Shown here piece after piece: positions 3,378 through 17,164 of a stretch of DNA of 20,000 nucleotides. Within the stretch, counting starts at the first letter, position 1; the number at the start of each line of letters is the position of its first letter. The translations under genes and the position numbers were made by a program. Under the pieces are notes generated by a model. The model saw nothing but the letters and a program-made list of their open reading frames with translations. It was not told the DNA's origin and made no database searches. Source of the stretch: Trichoplax sp. H2 (lineage: Eukaryota); contig NOWV01000147.1 of NCBI GenBank assembly GCA_003344405.1, positions 170,951-190,950 of the forward strand. Direction: 5' to 3'.

Positions 3378-4174
3378 TCATCTGCTCTGTAAATACAATA
3401 GTGTTCTCTGCTTTATATCCGCTTCAGCAATAGTCATTGATAAATTATCAAATTCGCGTTTAGGAATTTCATTAGTAACAAGTATAAGACTTAAAACTTC
3501 AAGAGATTTGGCAGCGTAAGCAGCATATCGAATGATGTCATTTAAAGTATTACTTCGCCGAAACCATCTTTCGATCCTTTTTCCATTATTAAGCTTAACG
3601 GCTAACATAATACGATCTTCATCTTGATCATCTGGTTCTGGTGGTATAGGAATTTGTCGCCATGATTTCTAAATAAAATATTGACAACCATAAATATGAT
3701 ATCAGCTAGTCAGAAGAATAAAACACTGTATGATGGTAAAGTATAATAAAGTTATAATTTTATCTAGCTTACCGGATCGCTCGCTCTTCTAGCTAAATGA
3801 TTTCGTTTAAAAGTCGACGTTGTTGCATTGCTATTGGGAGGATGCGGTCGGAAAATTGGTGTTACTGTTTTAATGTCAACTGTGTCTCGGTTACCAATAG
3901 AAGGCAATCGTTTATATTTAGATAGAGACGCTGCGGTTGATTCAGGTGCTGGAGGGAAATTAGGCAATGCGGAATCTTGCGATAGCCCTCGAACTAATGG
4001 TTTACTGCTTGATGCAGTTACATAGGTTGATTGAAGCTCTGATTTTGTATTATCAGGAGCGGTATGAGTCCTTTCACTTGAATGCTGATGATATGAAGGA
4101 GACGAAGGAAGGCTAGTAGGTGGAGGTCGTCGCCGTCCCTTTGCTGATTGTGGTCGATTTCTTGTAGAGCTCAT
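3378..4174 (-). CDS. UBXN10: UBX domain-containing protein 10-like (p97/VCP adaptor), ~230 aa, 2 coding exons
   Basis: Exons 4174-3773 and 3668-3378, joined by a phase-0 GTAAG...TTTAG intron (3772-3669). C-terminal UBX domain: PPEPDD..RIMLAVKLNNGKRIERWFRRSNTLNDII..EIPKREF..TIAEADIKQRTLLYL. N-terminal RPQSAKGRRRP and SLSKYKRLPSI match the RPKSAKGRTRP and SLNKYPVLPSI motifs I recall from vertebrate UBXN10. Confidence 0.85.
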
Positions 4175-6329
4175 TATAGTTGGCAGCCACAAAATTCATA
4201 TAATTAAATTGACAACTTTCCAAGATTTGAAGATACCATCACACTCTTTTTATTTTAAGCAATTCTTACAAAATCTGTAATCATAAATTAAATGTTTTTG
4301 AATGACAATATTATTATCAACAAGATATTTTTATATCATAATACTAGTGCTATCTAATACTTTTACTTAAAATTTAAGTTTACATCTATGAAATATTTAG
4401 TTATAAAAAAATAACGATATACCGTAGCTTGCGTTTGTTATTAAAATAGTTTAGGTTCTATGTTATGAGTTACTGCATTGTAAATTGACCTGGTGCGCTT
4501 TTAGATGACTACTACATGGCATGCACAACTTTCATATAGCAAATATGGCACCGTAATATAAAATTTTGTTAAATACTGTAGTCATTTAACGATCGCTACA
4601 AAAAGCTTCCAAAGTATATTAAACTCAAAGCGTTTCATTTACTCACTTAACCGGATGTCTGTACAGGTATAGAAATACGAAAGAACACTAAAGTGAATAC
4701 GTTAGCTTCAAAAGCTGATTATTGCTTTAAAATTTTACGTAACTATCTTAGATAATGATTAAACAACACACTGTACCGTCATAGTATATATCGTTACACA
4801 TGCTGCGTATAGCAGAATATTTGCGTTTATCCTAAAAACTATTGCTGCTATCGCACATAACTCTCCCTATACTTCAGTAACCGAAAACTTAATATTGTTC
4901 TATCTGATATGGACTAAGACAATGCACTCGTTTTATTAATATCTATAGGCTTCCAAATATTATATTGTAGTATTTCATTGACAATATAGTAATTCTAGTA
5001 CAAAAATATTAATCCTCGTTATATTGACTTAAACTTGTAGTTCTTATTGAGTTGGAATGGTACCGGTAATTATCGTGCTTTATCTGATTTATTGAGCACA
5101 GATTTATTCTACGCTACTATACGTAGTAGATTTACTCGACTGATTAAATCGTGGTATTGATAACGGAGAATGGAAAATTAATATTAAGGAGGTATTAGCT
5201 ATAAACTACCTCATGCTACAAATATAGTATTCAATACCATACTGTTTATGACTATTATAACATATTTCATAGGTATTCAATCGTATGGAATTAAAACTTT
5301 AGTAGTGACCGTAATTTAATCTGATTAACTTTCTCACTTCACCCTCTTCAGTACTACTTTGGAAAATATAGACGGTATATAATTATATAGTATACTCGTA
5401 TACGCCTCTCTAAGAATAGAATGGGAAGTAAAATGCGAATAGCTATGCTTATATCTACAGCATAATGATCATTCACAGTGACCACTGGCATATTAAGCTT
5501 GGTCATATATGCGGTTTAGGAGGAACGTTAATACCCCACTACGCCTAACTTATTGATAGACAGAGTCACAATGATACATAATCAACCTATTTTAGTCAAC
5601 CATAAGATAGGGTATACTCGTCCATATATCTATTTCATATTTAAAAATCATTGACAGTTTATCAATCTCAGTCCGCGACTGTATTGCGTATTTTTGTAGT
5701 TCATTATCATAATCACAACCGTTCTTTGTATGCCTCTAATATTCGAGATTAGAATTCTCTGTATAAATTGTCCCTACCCGTCCCCATGCATGTCTAATCT
5801 GCGAGTATATAAATAAGTTATAAATACCTTCTTTTTTTTCCATTATTTCATTGAAAACCTGTACTTCTTTCCTATATTCACAGCCAAGAATAAATTTAAA
5901 TATTCCGATCGGCAAATAATTTTCCTCAAGTCTATCATACGCGTAAAAGGAAGTTCTTCAATCATTGACCAATATAATCAATTCAGATGTCAAGCAAGTA
6001 CATCCTGGGCTCAATCATATTGCCTTTGTGGGTGGGTGGAAAATATCACCAATAGAACCAGTAATCGTTGGCTATAACTTTAATCTTATAGCAACATAAA
6101 CTAAAGTTGTAATATGGATATTGACCGTTGTCCAATAAGACTGCAAATAGGGAAAATGGTCAATACAGTAGATTAATTGCTTCTACAGTATACAGGAATA
6201 TTCTACCCATATCAAGCAGTCGATGGTATACTATTCCGTGTTGATTGGCCAAAGTATGAGGTTGCTTACTCCGCATGAATAACAGTACTCAATCAGTAGT
6301 TATATTGATAGTATTTAGTAAGATTCAAT

Positions 6330-10000: not shown

Positions 10001-11053
10001 ATAGCGAAGCGTAACCAGTTTACACATGCTCCTCTTAGGTAGACGAAGGGAAAAGAAGGTAGAGCAAATCATTATTGGTACTCCGGGTACAATTTTGGAC
10101 TGGATTAGACTGAAATTATTTGATCCTAGCAAGTTGGGTATATTTGTTTTGGACGAAGCGGATGTAATGATTGATACACAAGGCCACCGTGATCAATCAA
10201 TCAAGGTGCACAGGTAGGGAGTATAGTGCTATGAAGACTAAATTGGATCGGTATTATCGATGCAAATCGTTGGCTATACAAGTAATACTAAATGAAAGAC
10301 TTGAACGTCTAGGCACTTGAAGAAAAGTGCTCAATTTCTCTTGTTCTCCGCGACGTACGAAGATCGTGTCATGAAATTTGCAGAATCCATCGTTCCAAAT
10401 CCCGTTATTATCAGATTAAAACGTAGTGAAGAAAGCTTAAGCAACATTAAACAATTTTATATTCGGTGTCAAGACCGACAAGAAAAATTCGAAGCACTAT
10501 CTAATATCTATGGAACTATTAGCATCGGCCAAGCCATGGTCTTTTGTCATGTAAGCCACTACAGTAGATTGCGATTTATAGTAAACCCTTATTGCTGCTA
10601 CCGAGATAATGTATGATGTGGTTTTATTACGTCTAGACTAAAAAATCTGCGCAATGGTTAGCTATGAAGATGAAAGAAGATGGTCACGCTGTGGCTTTGT
10701 TAACGGGAGACAATTCTCCTGAAGAGCGTATGTTTGTCATTGATAGGTACAGAAGTGGAAAAGAAAAACTTTTAGTAACAACTAACGTATGTGCTCGTGG
10801 TATTGATGTGGAGCAAGTGTCTGTTGTCATCAATTACGATGTGCCTCTTGATGGCCGTGGAATCCCTGATTGCGAGACTTATTTACATCGAATTGGTAGA
10901 ACTGGTCGTTTTGGAAAGAAAGGTATTGCTATTAATTTCGTGGATTCTGACCGATCTTTCAATAATTTAAAGTCGATAGAGAAACATTTTGGTCGAAAGA
11001 TTAATCAGATTATAGCAGACGACCCTGACCAGTTGGAACAATTAGCTGATTGA
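7018..11053 (+). CDS. DDX19: ATP-dependent DEAD-box RNA helicase DDX19/DBP5 (DDX19/DDX25 family), ~475 aa, 9 exons
   Basis: Exons 7018-7077, 9109-9151, 9241-9424, 9503-9595, 9677-9779, 9853-9967, 10039-10213, 10313-10550, 10637-11053 sum to 1428 nt in frame. Motifs: [10 protein letters not shown]-terminus, [18 protein letters not shown] motif [44 protein letters not shown] and [12 protein letters not shown]. Confidence 0.96.
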
Positions 11054-11512: not shown

Positions 11513-12875
11513 TTATTGACAGTGGATCCATTTCTGAATAAAATAAGTATAGCGTTGATTCAAGAATCCGTGCTTTAAAGGGATTGGCTTACTGCAACAA
11601 TGTGGTTGCAGACTCCACTTGCAATACGTTGAAATGGTTGTACAGTATACGAGTCGATCATGGGATGCTAGTCCTTCAAGCAGTTGTGTTGCCGACGGAC
11701 TGTGTGACTCAGGGTTATTTGATTTTCTCTTACTGGTTTCAATCGTGGAGAGTAATGCACTTGTTGACACTGCTTCATCAATATCAGATATATCTTCTTG
11801 AGCAATGTTAAGCATGCGATTCAGATCCGTCAAGGCTAAAATAGAGACGCTACAGTAGTAAGTGCAAGTCCCTGAGATATCCTATAGATCAGAGATTTGA
11901 ACTACCACTACCGTTGGTCTATGTTTTTGAAGCATGCGATTGAGATCAGTCAAAGCTAAAATAGAGATGCTACAGTAGTAAGTGCAAGTCCCTGAGGTGT
12001 CCTATAGATCAGATCATCAGAGACTTGAACTACAACTACCGATGGTCTATGTTTTTAAAGCATGCGATTGAGATCAGTCCAGGCTAAAATAGAGACGCTA
12101 CAGTAGTAAGTGCAAGTCCCTGAGGTATCTTATAGATCAGATCATCAGAGACTTGAACTACAACTACCGTTGGTCTATGTTTTTAAAGCATGCGGTTGAG
12201 ATCAGTCTAGGCTAAAATAGAGACGCTACAGTAGTAAGTGCAAGTCCCTGAGATATCCTATAGATCAGAGACTTGGAACTACCACTACCGTTGGTCTATG
12301 TTTTTAAAGCATGCCGTTGAGATCTGTCAAGGCTAAAATAGAGACGCTAGAGTAGTAAGTGCAAATCCCAGAGGTATCCTATACTGTATAGATCAGATCA
12401 TCAGAGACTTGAACTACAACTACCGTTGGTCTATGTTTTTGAAGCATGCGGTTGAGATCGGTCAAGCCTAAAATAGAGACGCTACAGTAGTAAGTGCAAG
12501 TCCCTGAGATATCCTATAGATCAAGGGACTTGAACTACAACTACCGTTGGTCTACAGTATGTTTTTAAAGCATGCGGTTGAGATCAGTCAAGCCTAAAAT
12601 AGAGATACTACCGTAGTAATGACGAATGATCATAAGACAAGCACAAGCAGAAATGGGCGAGTGTGTTCGTTTTTTACATGGCGACTAGGAGCATTAGCAT
12701 GCTGGCTATCCGACCATGATTTACTTCTCAAAGAGACATATTGACTCCCCATTTGTATTCTCCACTGCCAAAGAGGGAGAGACATGGCGTTGTCTCCTCG
12801 TGTGTACTCGTTGGTGTATATCCATGTAAGGACTTTTCTAATGTTATGATTTGGCAACAATTTCGCTCTCTCCAT
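11513..12875 (-). CDS. Hypothetical spliced orphan ORF (~157 aa) spanning the tandem array; may instead be non-coding
   Basis: ORF 12875-12725 ends at a phase-1 GTAAAT donor (12724). An acceptor TCTCTATTTTAG ends at 11836 and opens phase-1 into the 11835-11513 ORF (LTDLNRMLNIAQEDISDIDEAV...). No recognisable homology. Confidence 0.2.
11810..12619. repeat. Tandem array, ~6.4 copies of a 120-135 bp unit
   Basis: Units start at AAGCATGC at 11810, 11930, 12058, 12186, 12307, 12442 and 12568 (partial). The shared core is CTAAAATAGAGACGCTACAGTAGTAAGTGCAAGTCCCTGAG...CTACCGTTGGTCTATGTTTTT. Length variants come from short indels (ATCATCAG, CTGTATA, CAGTA). Confidence 0.97.
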
Positions 12876-12879
12876 GCGA

Positions 12880-13200
12880 ATGCCAAATTGTTGAAGATTG
12901 TCTAGACCGGTCAGAGGTTCCGTTCCAACCGCATACCAACCGATTCAAGTCACGTTCTCCGCTTCGAGGGTCCTTGCGTCTGTCCGGTTCAGGTTCAAGT
13001 TCAGAATTAGGGATCCGCCAACGGTCGGTCCAGCTTACAGTACTCTCCACGGCGAGTGTACAGTACACAGCTGTGTACTGTACTGTACACTGTACCGTTA
13101 CAGTGTTTACTACAGTACCGTATCGGACCGCGCCGTACCGGACCGGATAACCGTTTCTCATTCAGTATTGTCATTTGAAAATACTTAACTTGCAGCTTTG
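12880..13200. promoter_or_regulatory. Putative promoter region of the RNase III-like/ankyrin gene (possibly bidirectional)
   Basis: CpG-rich patch upstream of a probable 5'UTR intron (donor AG|GTAAAT at 13450, acceptor TATGCAG ending 13562) and the ATG at 13645. Contains a palindrome and dense TACWGTA motifs. Confidence 0.4.
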
Positions 13201-13644
13201 GTTGACAATTTAAAACAGTTTGGAAAATTACACGAGGGAAAGAAAGTTGCAGAACTTTCATCTGTATGCGTAATTTGCTTTAACTAAGCCTAAAAGAGCC
13301 CAAGTGATAGTATTGAGCGTACAACATCAAGATTGCCTTTTCCCCGTAGCAAGCAGTGCATCTACGCCATCATTACTGTACTGGATAGCAGCAGCAGCAG
13401 TGTTGGAAGAAAGAAAATAAAAATTCCAATTTACCTCGCTTGCAATAAGGTAAATTAGCTCGCAGTAGCATTGCAATAATGTCATGTTGAGTCCTCATGC
13501 ACGATTATCGGTATTACGGCCTACATGGATAGTTAATCATGACCCTTGTTATTTGTATGCAGACAGGCAGAGGAGAAAAAATAATCCACATTCAAGAAAA
13601 TTAATCAATGATAGTACATGTAGACAGCCGATATTGGTTGTAGT

Positions 13645-15711
13645 ATGGATTTGATACAACATGCCTTTGAAACACGACTTAGCACTTCTGCTACAACAGA
13701 CATCCAAAAGATACTCCAACTCGACAGTGGATCGGACTATCAGGACACGGAAAGTATGTTTGCATTGATTGGTGATAAATTGATGGAACTGGTATTATCT
13801 GCAATGGTATATGATTACGGATCCAAATTATCCTACTCTGATCAAAGTTCTATAGTCAATGCTTTGGCCAATGATCGAATCGTATTTCAACAACTATTCG
13901 ATGCGATCGGTTCAACAACAATCATCCACCAGTTCAATCCTAATTGGGATGGTCAAGGGCTTACCAATTCAATATTAAGCCGAAAGTTAAAGGCCTTTGT
14001 GGGTGTCTTAGTCATGCATGGCAGCTGGGATACTCTTGCACGTTGTATTAAAAAGCACTTGCTCAATTATGTTACCACACACATTGATGGTCGTGTTGAT
14101 AGCAGCAAATCCAGGAATGCATCAGCAAAAGAAAATGAAAGTAATTTTCATATCCACAAAAGATTCATACAAAATCCCATCACGCACCATTTCGATACTG
14201 AAGGAGGGAAACATAGCCAAGAATTGAAAGATCCTCTTGTAACGACGACGACGACGGATACCGCTGACGAAAGCCTACCATCATCCTTTGAAGCTGCACG
14301 CAAAATGCAACTTTTACAAAATGAAATGATGCAAAAATCTCAAGAGCGAGAATACCAATCACCTAAACGTGATAACTTGAGCAGTCCAGGTGAGCTTGAC
14401 TATGTATTAATCTGTCCATCGACATCAATAATCGCAACACATTTAGCCAAGGGTACAGTACATCGGTGACGTAGATTGTGTTCAGTAGATCTAGCCAAAG
14501 AGAAAGCATCTAACTAGGATATATGTATATTCATATTGATACTTCTAGGCAATGTATCTTTCAATAATCCACGTAGCGCAGTAACACCAAAAGAACAACG
14601 CGTATTTTCCGCTATTAGTGGATCAACTTGTACCCTGCTACAATTTAAACAGTACGTCGCCCACCTGCCAGACATCAATGCTAGGAATAGCGGTAAAGTA
14701 GGTGATACACCGTTAATGTTACTCCTTCGAAAGACTCACTTACGAAGTGACGACGAAATACCGAAAATTGAAGTCCTTTTAAGACTTGGTGCTTCTTGGA
14801 CTGCAACAAACAATCAGGGTGCATCTGCAAATATAATCGCTCGCAAACATGATAGTGCTGTCATCGATAGATTAAGGAAGATTCAACCTGTTGATATAGA
14901 TGAAAGAGTGCCATTAAGCGAACCGCTGGAAAATTACTCTGTATCACCAGAGATGCAAAAGGTATTTTCAGCAGTGAGTGGAGATACTTATTCGCTACCT
15001 CAGTTTGAAGAAGCTGTGAATAATGTACCAAACATTAACTGTAGAAATTCTGGTAAAAAAGGTGATACAGCACTCATGATGTTATTACGAAAAGACGTAC
15101 TAAAATTAGAAACAGATATTCCGAAAATTAAAATTTTACTAAGCTATGATGCTTCTTGGACAGCCACCAACAATAGAGGTGAGACTGCAATGCAGCTTGC
15201 TACAAAGCATCCATCAAACGTTCTAGATATGATTAAATTCCCGGCAAATTCAGCTAATTCCACATCAAGTAATCCAGAACAAGTAAGCACTCCAGTATCC
15301 GAAAGAGAACCAGGTCAATCGCGTGGTGTATCAAGTCAAAAATCTGAAACTCCAAATTATTCCACTAACGCAAGTATTAATTACAGTCCACCACTTAGGC
15401 ATGTTGGCCTTAGGGAACGGAAAGTAATCGATGCGATCAAGAATAGAAACTCCTCCATAGGCGAATTACGACGGGTAATATCTAGAGTTGAAAATTTGAA
15501 TTTTTGTGATAATAGCGAAGTTGGAGACCCTCCTTTGATGTTGCTTTTGCGTCAAAAAGATTTAAATCTGTCGACCGATGTATCAAAATTTGAACTTCTC
15601 AGAAATTTTGGTGCTTCATTGGATTACCGAAATAATCGTAACCAATCCGCTAGGGATTTGATTTCTTCACTTGATAAAAACTTTTTCCTTAAAATCCAAA
15701 AATTTTGTTAA
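13645..15711 (+). CDS. Uncharacterised protein, ~635 aa: degenerate RNase III-like domain plus three ankyrin-type modules
   Basis: Exon 13645-14389 (donor CAG|GTGAG) and exon 14549-15711 (acceptor TTCTAG) join in phase 1, giving 1908 nt. An in-frame TAG at 13621 fixes the ATG. N-terminal ESMFALIGDKLMELVLSAMVY and [14 protein letters not shown] align by eye to RNase III motifs. The C-terminal modules carry ankyrin-like GDTPLMLLL...LLRLGASWTATNNQG. Confidence 0.85.
14578..15672 (+). repeat. Three internal ~91-aa ankyrin-type protein modules
   Basis: Module 1 is 14578-14850, module 2 is 14938-15210 and module 3 is 15400-15672. They align without gaps, e.g. INARNSGKVGDTPLMLLLRK / INCRNSGKKGDTALMMLLRK / LNFCDNSEVGDPPLMLLLRQ and GASWTATNNQG / DASWTATNNRG / GASLDYRNNRN. 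Confidence 0.9.
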
Positions 15712-17164
15712 AAGTTTCTCACTGTTATCGTTTCTTCCAATTGTTAAAATAGTATAGAGTTGAGTGACCAAGTCATATCCAGAAATGATCTATATTTTTA
15801 TTCAGGAATGATTCGCTCAATATGTACTTAGACCAATCATGATTACTAGCGATTGTAACGTTTTGAACAGTTTAAATTGATCAGCAATATTGTACAGTGT
15901 GCACATCTTTGACCTTGCTTGAAACTGCCTCTAGTTCACATGGATTGGTTCCTTATTTACACTTGACCACACCAGTCTGAATTGCATGTAGGCTATGAAG
16001 AAAATATTTTATTGTAAAAGTTTTAATAGGAAGTTCCAAGGGCGTCGTTGGCACTTATTATTTATTCAATATCAATCGTTTGTTACATAAAAGCGATCAT
16101 GATGCTTGTATTTTGTTTTATCGCAATATACACAAAAATCGACTTAATTCTATTTATTCAGAAATAATATTATGTAACGGTTATGATATGCCAGCGTAGC
16201 CCTATTTATTCATGGACTTTACCAACGAATACAGTAATATCTATTTAAAGTTTTCGTACTCATATTAAATTGAACGTTCTAACGACAGTTTACTAAAAAC
16301 TTTAAAACTAGAATTGAAATGTTGTGACTGATAATGACCAGTCTTGTACAGTGGTGAAAAATAAATACCGATACAACACTATGATAAGAGAGGAATCTCA
16401 TATTCATCTTTGTTAAACTTCGCTTACAATCTTTATCATAACTTGCCTAGTAGTGTACGTGTAGCTACCGCAAACGAAAGAAATAGTAATAAGTTCAAGC
16501 TATATTCAATGTGTTACATATTGTGTATACAATTGTTTCGATTAGGTGAAAATTCAGTCTGAAAATGAAAACTTCTATATCTATCTTAAGATATTAAAAT
16601 TACATCATTAATGAAGTTAACAATTACGCAGTCTTGGATAACTCTTTCTACCCTGATTTAATTATTATTAAGGTTAGATTAGAAATGTTAATTTCGATAT
16701 GTATAACCGTGTAATAAAAAAATTTCGTTGTTCGCACACATTAGACTTTGTCGACTAATAGAGATATTATCTTTAAACGAAGGAAGATAGTTATTGCTTC
16801 GTTATACCAGATTAAAGGACATTGAACAACATTTATAATAATATTAAAGGCTTTCTTATGCAATGATATATTGCAAGCATAAGCTTTAAGAGGGCTAATC
16901 CAAATTAGCAATAATCTATTTGTCTAAAAACTATATTTAAAAGTATAAGAGTATAACATGTTCTTGAAACACCGCAGGTATCAAAAAACATTCTGTACTC
17001 GTACAGCTTTATTTTTATCCGTAATAACATCTAGAGCATCTATTATTTTCTTGGCTTTTTAATTGCGAGACCACGTCTCATAGACTTAAAAACTAGGACA
17101 AGACTTTCCAATTTCCAACCGTTTCATGAATTAATTCTTAACTACCACTCGTATTAATTATAAA

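Follow-up and report, generated by a model that had tools for sequence, protein, structure and literature searches.

That RNase III-like domains can be inactive and serve in RNA binding or assembly is established. In mL44 and in the trypanosome editing proteins, RNase III folds with an incomplete catalytic set serve binding or assembly rather than cutting, and the editing complexes use pairs of a degenerate and an active RNase III. Such inactive proteins carry dsRBD-like domains, a second RNase III domain, or zinc-finger/U1-like domains; to our knowledge, none carries ankyrin modules. In the E. coli RNase III variant rnc70, the dsRBD supplies most of the RNA affinity, and the atypical eukaryotic RNase III R3B2 of Mucor carries dsRBDs as well; Dicer and Drosha each have two RNase III domains, which pair within one chain. 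Ankyrin repeats occur together with a ribonuclease-type domain in RNase L, where the N-terminal repeats bind 2-5A and the nuclease, which is active and has the unrelated KEN fold, dimerises as part of an RNA-based defence pathway; its likeness to the protein described below is one of architecture only, with no computed link between the two.

In published accounts, the E117K form of E. coli RNase III (rnc70) binds dsRNA and leaves it uncut (PMC3621894, PMC8708148), as the initial annotation of this locus had stated. According to the mutant data given in PMC8708148, E117K, E117A or E117Q end cleavage, and D45A, E65A, E100A and D114A reduce it; the same source places F42 in the 'ball and socket' dimer junction and cites maize chloroplast RNC1 as having two inactive RNase III domains, likewise an RNase III fold without the complete catalytic set that serves binding or assembly and not cutting. 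R3B2 is described as an active nuclease that cuts only ssRNA (PMC8136814). The RNA-silencing toolkit of placozoans is oddly reduced: Trichoplax is reported to retain Dicer2 and AGO2, with Pasha, Dicer1, AGO1 and miRNAs given as absent in the same accounts (PMC3563456, PMC3563972).

The locus compared here with these systems lies within 20,000 nt of Trichoplax sp. H2 DNA (the window) and encodes an RNase III-like domain fused to three ankyrin-type modules. The gene is real and is expressed as a spliced RNA with three exons on the + strand. Its two ORFs (13645-14469 and 14536-15711), which the initial annotation had proposed to be joined at 14389/14549, belong to one transcript: in runs X5 and X6, which stem from separate studies, spliced contigs link the coding exons at exactly this junction, and the same joined peptide is present in the T. 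adhaerens model P0001. The contigs jump 159 bases with GT..AG ends; intron 2 is thus 14390-14548 (GTGAGC...TTCTAG, phase 1, boundary letters checked). One X6 contig (2,713 nt) spans 13274 to 16257, including both coding exons, and X12, the run recorded as RNA, overlaps portions of both. Upstream, the X5 and X6 contigs begin at 13240 and 13274, respectively, run to 13447 and continue at 13561, outlining a 5' UTR exon at 13240-13449, with an approximate 5' limit, and a 113-nt intron 1 within the 5' UTR (13450-13562, GT..AG, boundary letters checked), whose joint is seen in both runs. The X5 contig end at 13240 adjoins adapter-like loose letters. Exon 2 (13563-14389) contains the start codon at 13645 and, ahead of it, an in-frame TAG (13621-13623); the MDLIQ start is common to the window protein and both orthologs. 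Exon 3 (14549-16340) is coding up to the stop codon at 15709-15711, followed by a 3' UTR of ~550-630 nt; the contigs end at 16257 (X6) and 16340 (X5), and poly(A)-signal-like hexamers lie at 16264 (ATTAAA) and 16360 (AATAAA). The spliced product has 635 residues (~71 kDa).

This spliced structure amends the public gene model. TRIADDRAFT_57515 is 98-100% identical to the window sequence; the public T. adhaerens model is labelled 'uncharacterized', with ankyrin as its sole Pfam domain, and opens in a different frame at about codon 57. Its opening peptide corresponds to the +2 frame of the window at ~13816, pointing to either a 1-nt difference or a faulty assembly around codon 65. The public model lacks the first ~64 residues, the signature motif among them, which is probably why the N-terminal domain has gone unannotated.

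Profile comparisons and predicted structures identify residues ~1-150 (13645-14094) as an RNase III catalytic-domain fold that has diverged strongly, with a confident core at residues 38-144. The Pfam family PF14622 matches all three placozoan orthologs (best E 7.9e-6) and PF00636 two of them (best E 1.8e-5); the window protein by itself stays below the Pfam cut-off (PF14622, 14.8-15.9 bits against 35), and TIGR02191 scores 12.9 bits on it against a cut-off of 166, covering only profile positions 34-144 of 219. Aligned by hhalign with 31 bacterial RNase III domains, the ortholog profile reaches a probability of 90 (score 42.6, E 1.7e-6, 106 aligned columns), against a maximum score of 24.5 in 100 column shuffles (mean 12.3, sd 2.5; maximum probability 11.4) and 14.7 for the reversed query. 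The bacterial profile is purely proteobacterial (30 loci from 61 genomes, one phylum), this set having replaced the first E. coli Rnc relatives, which were all near-identical enterobacterial loci. In local mode, window residues 38-144 are collinear with E. coli 39-145 at 14% identity; global mode adds, at low confidence, residues 1-13 opposite E. coli 20-32, across an 18-residue insertion that follows the first helix and sets the domain apart from the bacterial enzymes. The three motif matches that the initial annotation had drawn by eye are thus recovered by profile-profile alignment, the one in residues 1-13 at low confidence. Against PDB sequences, the three-ortholog profile gives 3 matches at E<=10, the top two being C. 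jejuni RNase III (0.022 and 0.042).

The predicted structures point the same way. An AF2 model built from the three-sequence alignment is of middling quality (pLDDT 65.8, pTM 0.59; residues 1-30 under pLDDT 50); a single-sequence model (pLDDT 44.3) was left unused. Among the 38 Foldseek matches listed, 33 are by name RNase III, Dicer, Mini-III, R3B2 or RTL4 entries and 5 are mitoribosome entries, although the best has an E of 5.6e-3, with TM ~0.5 and a large rmsd, and none lies at E<=0.001. VIA-align against 48,161 chains finds 21 at Z>=8: 18 carry RNase III, Dicer or Drosha names, and three do not (2gsl, 9dei from an editing complex, and 3j6b from the yeast mitoribosome). Plainly unrelated chains do not set in until rank 30 (Z 5.6), a scale to be read with the caveat that helical models may reach Z up to ~13 through a common arrangement. 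The closest class 1 bacterial enzymes (E. coli, Aquifex, Thermotoga, Campylobacter) align over 116-134 residues at Z 9.9-8.9, and Dicer and Drosha share the fold at Z 9.4 (8dfv), 9.2 (9asm) and 9.0 (7yym); mitoribosome chains and the editing-complex chain 9dei_D are likewise among the matches. In the ESM Atlas, RNase III clusters make up 25 of 30 matches (top score 0.93).

At the active site, too, the domain departs from the bacterial enzymes. The bacterial columns corresponding to E. coli E41, E65, E100, D114 and E117 are acidic in 31, 31, 30, 24 and 31 of 31 sequences; in the three orthologs they read AAA, YYH, NNN, RRR and KKK. D45 (DDD) is the sole acid retained of the six bacterial acidic positions examined. 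In the window protein, the degenerate signature motif ESMFALIGD (residues 36-44, 13750-13776) keeps G43 and D44, as in the bacterial enzymes, and has A40 in place of E41, so that the acid pair of the motif is incomplete; E36 and D44 are invariant in the three orthologs. The second metal-binding pair is absent: in R113-K114-L115-K116 (13981-13992), R113 and K116, invariant in all three orthologs, take the places of D114 and E117, and E65 and E100 are replaced by Y64 (Y/H in the orthologs) and N100. That of the four metal-binding acids only the D45 equivalent survives had been noted from the window alone, with codons at 13774, 13981 and 13990; these positions are correct, and the replacements prove invariant across the orthologs. 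K116 is the natural counterpart of the change engineered in rnc70 and in Aquifex E110K, but the Trichoplax domain has lost E41, E65, E100 and D114 as well. Given the E. coli RNase III mutant data, the N-terminal domain should be catalytically inactive.

The C-terminal part comprises three collinear modules of ~105 residues. In the exon-3 ORF, Ank_2 scores 29 bits (cut-off 27.3) and Ank_4 24.8 bits (cut-off 22.7). Taken singly, one module of the three finds an ankyrin family in Pfam, namely module 2 (14929-15243), the sole one to pass the thresholds alone (Ank_2, 29 bits against 27.3). Module 1 (14575-14889) is 50% and 72% identical to its two orthologs, the lower figure being an underestimate because P0009 begins within this module; module 3 (15406-15708) is the most diverged, with 28% identity to module 1. 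A profile of the modules retrieves 21 PDB sequences at E<=0.01, 20 of them named ankyrin or DARPin and one a 169-residue chain labelled caspase-2. Identity to the orthologs is 41-43% in the core of the N-terminal domain, 38-72% in the ankyrin modules and 17-27% in the linkers.

No dsRBD, PAZ or helicase family is found in either ORF at E<=10 in Pfam, and the protein contains a single RNase III-like stretch; the architecture put forward in the initial annotation thus holds, as does its statement that the protein is neither Dicer, Drosha nor a typical mL44 (MRPL44). Assignment to class 1 RNase III (Rnc, Rnt1) was rejected on the missing dsRBD; compared with the bacterial members, the Trichoplax protein carries three ankyrin modules instead. 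Dicer or Drosha was rejected on the one RNase III-like domain against two, the lack of PAZ, helicase and dsRBD families, and the lost catalytic acids. A diverged mL44 was also considered and set aside: its endonuclease-domain family PF22935 matches one ortholog of three, at E 0.018, and ankyrin modules occupy the place of the dsRBD.

Two relatives, each 46% identical to the window protein, keep the frame open and collinear; in each, the exon-1 and exon-2 ORFs lie on contigs of equal size (3025/3025 and 3677/3677), which suggests the same two-exon layout and hence that the two-part arrangement is conserved at this divergence. An exhaustive protein search gives 6 proteins at E<=0.001, with members of this family in placozoan-like sequences only. 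P0005 and P0006, repeat proteins matching in 6-7 short stretches, and P0004 (3,579 residues, 6 stretches) were treated as low-complexity matches and rejected as relatives. A word-index search for homologs of similar length finds nothing among 245 candidates, a scan of viral contigs with the ortholog alignment (two N-terminal patterns) gives 8 pattern matches and zero relatives, and a BFVD fold search has nothing at E<=0.001 (best match, iridovirus RNase III, 6.5e-2). An Atlas search with P0001 returned a giant-virus RNase III cluster (score 0.89, 128 shared features), which is below the trust level of the tool and is recorded as a lead only. Literature searches, supplements aside, yielded no publication on an RNase III plus ankyrin architecture. 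That the architecture was 'unrecognised', as first proposed, thus stands within the searches made, together with the 'uncharacterized' label of the public model, and holds no further than that: the fusion would be a new architecture, seemingly confined to placozoans, and a modest, lineage-restricted novelty among RNase III-like proteins of the inactive kind already described.

As in the canonical enzymes, the domain is predicted to homodimerise via the signature helix. The homodimer model, made without the three-ortholog alignment, has an ipSAE of 0.77 against 0.00 for the best control, a value that could stem from solved RNase III dimers which the predictor has learned; three runs share 100% of the contacts, with a partner pLDDT of at least 81. 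Among proteins of solved structure, 21 of 30 homodimers and 0 of 23 single chains pass the mark used for ipSAE; in eukaryotes, 17 of 29 homodimers do so and 0 of 30 single chains (1 of 7 where there is no older solved relative). The predicted interface (residues 33-56, 63-71 and 123-132) takes in the signature helix together with residue 41, the counterpart of E. coli F42 in the alignment.

The reading that we favor, and consider reasonably probable, is that of a diverged, catalytically dead RNase III-fold domain that pairs with itself and serves as a non-catalytic module with ankyrin arms. The domain would no longer be able to bind the catalytic metal ions and would act as a non-catalytic module, pairing, by its signature-motif helix, with another copy of itself in the manner of canonical RNase III domains; the dimer would then present six ankyrin-type modules, tethered by flexible linkers, as arms for binding proteins. 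We infer that the ankyrin modules act as a scaffold, and the protein as a whole is probably a non-cutting one. The former catalytic valley, now with an invariant R-K-x-K at each former cleavage site, may still hold RNA. If it does, the domain would be a natural case of a nuclease active site turned into a binding site by the exchange of acids for bases; if not, it would be merely a dimerising scaffold in an orphan gene.

Retained RNA binding is the substance of a stronger proposal, that of the initial annotation, by which the valley clamps or shields dsRNA without cutting it while the ankyrin modules recruit effectors, the protein being a sensor or a modulator of RNAi. R113, K114 and K116, invariant in all three orthologs, lie at the very positions from which canonical enzymes bind the scissile phosphates via Mg2+, and both the binding without cleavage by E117K and the inactive domains cited for RNC1 are in keeping with it, as is the presence of Dicer2 and AGO2 in an animal described as having no Pasha, Dicer1, AGO1 or miRNAs. 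Sequence variation could be read in the same sense: across four closely related runs, 11 codons of the N-terminal domain carry protein-altering changes against 1 silent, as in an arms-race protein; for the 1,160-nt ankyrin part the figures are 2 against 1. The 11:1 excess, however, is not separable from neutral drift because only 12 codons are changed; by simple arithmetic, 15 changes would include no more than 1 silent with P ~0.08. Moreover, the protein has no dsRBD, whereas rnc70 still carries one; with a pI of 4.7-5.8 in the three orthologs (5.0-6.0 for the core), the domain ranges from acidic to neutral, and the loops aligned with those that we take to be RNA-contacting in bacterial enzymes are variable and non-basic. 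Binding of dsRNA in this form is thus unlikely, and the role of 'RNAi modulator or dsRNA sensor' is speculation. More specifically, and with a somewhat smaller chance of being right, the protein might be a placozoan-specific, metal-free dsRNA 'reader', in which a homodimeric shell holds an uncut duplex and six ankyrin modules signal to partners; it would contact the phosphates directly because the Mg2+-binding acids have turned into an invariant Arg-Lys-x-Lys. Such a reader would sense viruses or transposons, or antagonise Dicer2, in an animal that has lost miRNAs, Pasha, Dicer1 and AGO1, and the unusually rapid protein-level divergence of the domain between close strains would mark an arms race.

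There is only a slim prospect that the dead domain instead joins an active single RNase III domain into an asymmetric, single-cut nuclease, as in trypanosome editing. The predicted interface coincides with the dimer surface of canonical RNase III, and a chain of the editing complex RECC1 is among the fold matches (9dei_D, Z 8.4); on the other hand, the homodimer model scores well, and we know of no free single-domain active RNase III in animals besides mitoribosomal relatives. Dicer and Drosha, which the initial annotation had suggested as partners, pair their own domains within one chain and thus offer no free surface; heterodimerisation with them is therefore unlikely.

An equally slim prospect is that the N-terminal domain is a decaying relic beside a functional ankyrin region, under relaxed constraint and being lost at least in Trichoplax. 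Per nucleotide, the runs differ from the window ~10x more often within the domain than within the ankyrin part (X12, 13 in 548 nt in the domain against 1 in 173 and 1 in 716; X1, 5 within the domain and 0 elsewhere in the coding sequence), and almost all of these differences alter the protein; V50 and N76 are invariant among the three orthologs, yet variable among the close runs. These codon changes and the frame-shifted (+2) start of the public T. adhaerens model could both be signs that constraint on the domain has relaxed in the Trichoplax lineage, although that start may come from an assembly error. Against loss, the frame remains open and collinear, with its MDLIQ start, in two relatives just 46% identical; the core is far better conserved than the linkers; no coding indels are reported in the runs covering the coding part; and the replaced active-site residues are invariant, without drift.

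That the domain still cuts nucleic acid through another arrangement of residues, as R3B2 does on ssRNA, is very improbable: the R3B2 core (6zdw) does hold Foldseek ranks 2 and 3 (VIA-align Z 8.5), and D44 and E36 are invariant, but five of six acidic positions are lost, two of them to basic residues, and a single change at E117 abolishes E. coli cleavage (PMC8708148).

Between the self-pairing, non-cutting domain favored here and its ankyrin arms lies a weakly conserved linker without family match (residues 166-248, 14140-14389; 17-27% ortholog identity). Directly 3' of the domain, ahead of this linker, a conserved motif, D152-x-SKSRN...K162..E165 (14098-14139), is 67-73% identical to the orthologs.

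The gene is real and expressed. Its two open reading frames on the forward strand (13645..14469 and 14536..15711) belong to one mRNA, and not to two, as one 2,713-nt contig of the public sequencing run X6 (13274..13447 + 13561..14387 + 14547..16257) spans both. The runs X5 and X6 stem from separate studies, and contigs of both lack 159 bases between the frames, corresponding to an intron at 14390-14548 with GT..AG ends when the contig joints are shifted by +2; the junction 14389/14549 proposed in the initial annotation is thus present in these spliced contigs, and also in the sequence of P0001, the public T. adhaerens model TRIADDRAFT_57515. A further gap of 113 bases in the same contigs marks an intron in the 5' UTR (13450-13562). 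In the comparison of four public runs with positions 13000-16400, X1 retains both introns and behaves like DNA, and X12, recorded as RNA, covers 13627-14174, 14547-14719, and 15069-15907. An in-frame TAG (13621-13623) lies 3' of the first acceptor; the earliest possible start is thus 13645, and the MDLIQ start is common to the window protein and both diverged orthologs. The spliced CDS of 1,908 nt encodes 635 aa (~71 kDa, pI 8.4). The DNA of the region, with a G+C content of 27-44%, looks eukaryotic.

Taken alone, the window protein carries RNase III signals that are weak, yet consistent and collinear. PF14622 matches it with E 0.033 and 14.8 bits, below the cut-off of 35 bits, with residues 37-141 on profile positions 23-126 of 128; TIGR02191 gives E 0.058, and a search of PDB sequences returns three matches at E≤10, the best two being C. 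jejuni RNase III (0.33 and 0.43). In the ESM Atlas, RNase III families account for 25 of the 30 nearest clusters (top score 0.93, 193 of 256 features in common). Exhaustive phmmer over 1.84 billion representatives yields six proteins at E≤0.001: P0001; P0002 and P0003, each 46% identical to the window protein across residues 1-160; and three repeat-type matches, which were set aside. P0002 and P0003 overrun '...SPG' by a few residues into what is intron here, and are thus the exon-1 ORFs of diverged relatives. With these orthologs included, the evidence for an RNase III-like domain is solid at the sequence level: PF14622 matches all three (best E 7.9e-6) and PF00636 two of three (best E 1.8e-5), while a three-sequence profile raises C. 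jejuni RNase III to E 0.022 and 0.042. Against a 31-member profile of RNase III catalytic domains, made up of that of E. coli and 30 drawn from 61 genomes within a single phylum (identity to E. coli 35-100%), hhalign pairs residues 38-144 with E. coli 39-145 at probability 90, E 1.7e-6, and a score of 42.6; the maximum in 100 column shuffles is 24.5 (mean 12.3, sd 2.5), and the reversed query scores 14.7. The RNase III match first made by eye is thereby upheld for the domain; its extension to the very N-terminus (residues 1-13 opposite E. coli 20-32, with an 18-residue insertion between) is returned in global mode, but with low confidence.

The AF2 model from the three-sequence alignment has a pLDDT of 65.8 and a pTM of 0.59, with residues 31-90 forming a core at ~80 and residues 1-30 below 50. 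Foldseek against the PDB gives no match at E≤0.001 (best 5.6e-3), though all 38 listed rows are of RNase III type or from mitoribosomes: 33 are named RNase III, Dicer, Mini-III, R3B2, or RTL4 entries, and five are mitoribosomes, in which the matching chain is presumably mL44. VIA-align, which is independent of Foldseek and aligned all 48,161 representatives, has named RNase III-type entries as 18 of the 21 chains with Z of at least 8 (Thermotoga 9.9, E. coli 9.8, Pichia Dicer 9.7, Aquifex 9.7, Dicer-1 9.4, Drosha 9.2), values that helical models may attain by chance; 2gsl, the editing complex 9dei, and the yeast mitoribosome 3j6b make up the rest, and the first clearly unrelated row, an SRI domain (Z 5.6), is at rank 30. 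The fold assignment thus rests on the consistency of the family, the gap to unrelated rows, and the sequence evidence.

The active site was mapped by transferring the hhalign pairing to the three orthologs and the 31 bacterial sequences. E. coli E41, E65, and E117, each E in 31/31 bacterial sequences, are replaced in the orthologs by A, A, A, by Y, Y, H, and by K, K, K, respectively; E100 (E in 30/31) reads N, N, N, and D114 (24 D, 6 N, 1 S) reads R, R, R, while D45 (D in 31/31) remains D, D, D. The residue calls of the initial annotation (A40, D44, R113, K116) and their codon coordinates are correct, and its statement that E117K binds without cutting is published: Table 1 of PMC8708148 lists E117K, E117A, and E117Q as binding but not cleaving, and D45A, E65A, E100A, and D114A as weak, and PMC3621894 likewise describes E117K as non-cleaving and still binding. 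From the residue losses and these mutants we infer, on good grounds, that the N-terminal domain is catalytically inactive.

In the best reading, this non-catalytic RNase III shell would pair with a second copy of itself, and the homodimer would display six ankyrin modules as protein-binding arms. The two-copy model of the domain, built without the ortholog alignment, passes the dimer mark with an ipSAE of 0.77, versus 0.00 in the highest-scoring of three controls, a pass that may reflect likeness and not binding, since solved RNase III dimers exist; its runs agree in 100% of contacts, with pLDDT of at least 81. The mark is reached by 21/30 solved homodimers and 0/23 solved single chains (17/29 and 0/30 in eukaryotes, and just 1/7 without an older solved relative). 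The predicted interface (residues 33-56, 63-71, and 123-132) is based on the signature helix and takes in residue 41, which hhalign aligns to E. coli F42. F42 is among the dimer-junction mutants in Table 1 of PMC8708148, a source that describes a ball-and-socket junction joining the two domains. On a possible hold of the shell on RNA, the evidence pulls in two directions: R113-K114-x-K116 is invariant at each former cleavage site, but the loop regions are variable, the domain has a pI of 4.7-5.8 (core 5.0-6.0), and there is no dsRBD; as the initial annotation had it, the Pfam search finds neither this family nor PAZ or helicase families in the protein. A heterodimer with Dicer or Drosha, also proposed there, is unlikely, since the two RNase III domains of these enzymes already pair with each other intrachain.

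The arms of the homodimerizing shell would be provided by exon 3 (14549..16340), which encodes three collinear modules of ~105 aa each; relative to module 1, identity is 53% for module 2 and 28% for module 3, and a GD..LM.LLR core is invariant across them. The exon-3 ORF lies above the Pfam cut-offs for Ank_2 and Ank_4, as does, of the single modules, module 2 (1/3), and 20 of the 21 PDB sequences matched by the module profile at E≤0.01 are named ankyrin or DARPin, in agreement with the three ankyrin-type modules originally noted. Orthologs of this part are P0008 (54% identical) and P0009 (50%). P0003 and P0008 are each on one Logan contig of 3,677 nt, and P0002 and P0009 each on one ENA contig of 3,025 nt; from these paired contigs, the two-exon layout is very likely the same in both relatives. 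Identity to the orthologs is 41-43% in the domain core and 38-72% in the modules, and falls to 17-27% in the linker 3' of residues 152-165, a pattern of selection on folded domains. Residues 152-165 themselves (14098-14139), just after the domain, carry the motif D-x-SKSRN...K..E, 67-73% identical to the orthologs; this best-conserved stretch matches no family and is possibly a localization or modification signal.

Sites at which the four closely related runs depart from the window cluster in the N-terminal domain (13645-14139), at ~10x the density of the ankyrin part (14549-15708): X12 has 13 in 548 nt of the domain versus 1 in 173 and 1 in 716 downstream, and X1 has 5 in the domain and 0 in the remaining CDS. 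In the domain, 11 codons carry protein-altering changes versus 1 with a silent one, and in the ankyrin part 2 versus 1. V50 and N76, invariant in the three orthologs, vary among the runs; A40, D44, R113, K114, and K116 are absent from the changed positions. Positive selection and relaxed constraint could each account for this, and so few changes cannot separate the two.

In a protein search, the gene corresponds to TRIADDRAFT_57515, a 580-aa 'uncharacterized protein' for which ankyrin is the sole precomputed Pfam domain; identity is 98% for the product of the first coding exon (13563..14389) and 100% for that of exon 3. Its first residues, 'MITDPNYPT', correspond to the window read in frame +2 at ~13816, after which the model takes up the window's frame (13809-13845, codons ~56-67). 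This points to a 1-nt difference or indel near codon 65 of the reference, or to an error in its assembly there; the coding part shows no indel in any of the four runs. This frame difference would explain why the RNase III signature is missing from the public model.

Inactive RNase III-like proteins are already a known class, including mL44 and trypanosome editing proteins, and mitoribosome entries and the editing complex 9dei are among the fold matches of this domain. Maize RNC1 is another documented case (PMC8708148). Among the papers listed by our literature searches, none describes the pairing of an RNase III-like domain with ankyrin modules. The architecture is apparently a new variant among the known inactive proteins, its scaffold role is putative, and the exhaustive phmmer search found relatives in placozoan-like sequences only. 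On the RNAi background, passages of PMC3563456 describe Trichoplax as without Pasha and recognizable miRNAs, and passages of PMC3563972 report Dicer1 and AGO1 as lost and Dicer2 and AGO2 as kept. The ESM Atlas cluster nearest to P0001, a 433-aa 'putative RNase III domain-containing protein', is entirely Nucleocytoviricota (score 0.89, 128 features in common, below the tool's trust level); the giant-virus connection is a weak lead, and one viral-contig scan found no relative.

The upstream neighbor, on the same strand, is a DEAD/DEAH-type helicase gene (exons 10305-11053; Helicase_C E 2.4e-22 at 10637-11050). Upstream of the gene also lies an intergenic tandem array (12002-12619; 128-bp period, 4.9 copies, 85% matching). 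At 12842-13190, long open frames overlap on both strands in low-complexity, TAC/GTA-rich sequence, within which the X1 contigs break (loose ends 13074 and 13079); this stretch, which directly precedes the 5' UTR exon, is probably repetitive. On the reverse strand, a UBX-domain exon (3381-3668; E 9.8e-9) is adjoined by a Ser/Pro-rich frame (3767-4195, same strand) that has no family match.
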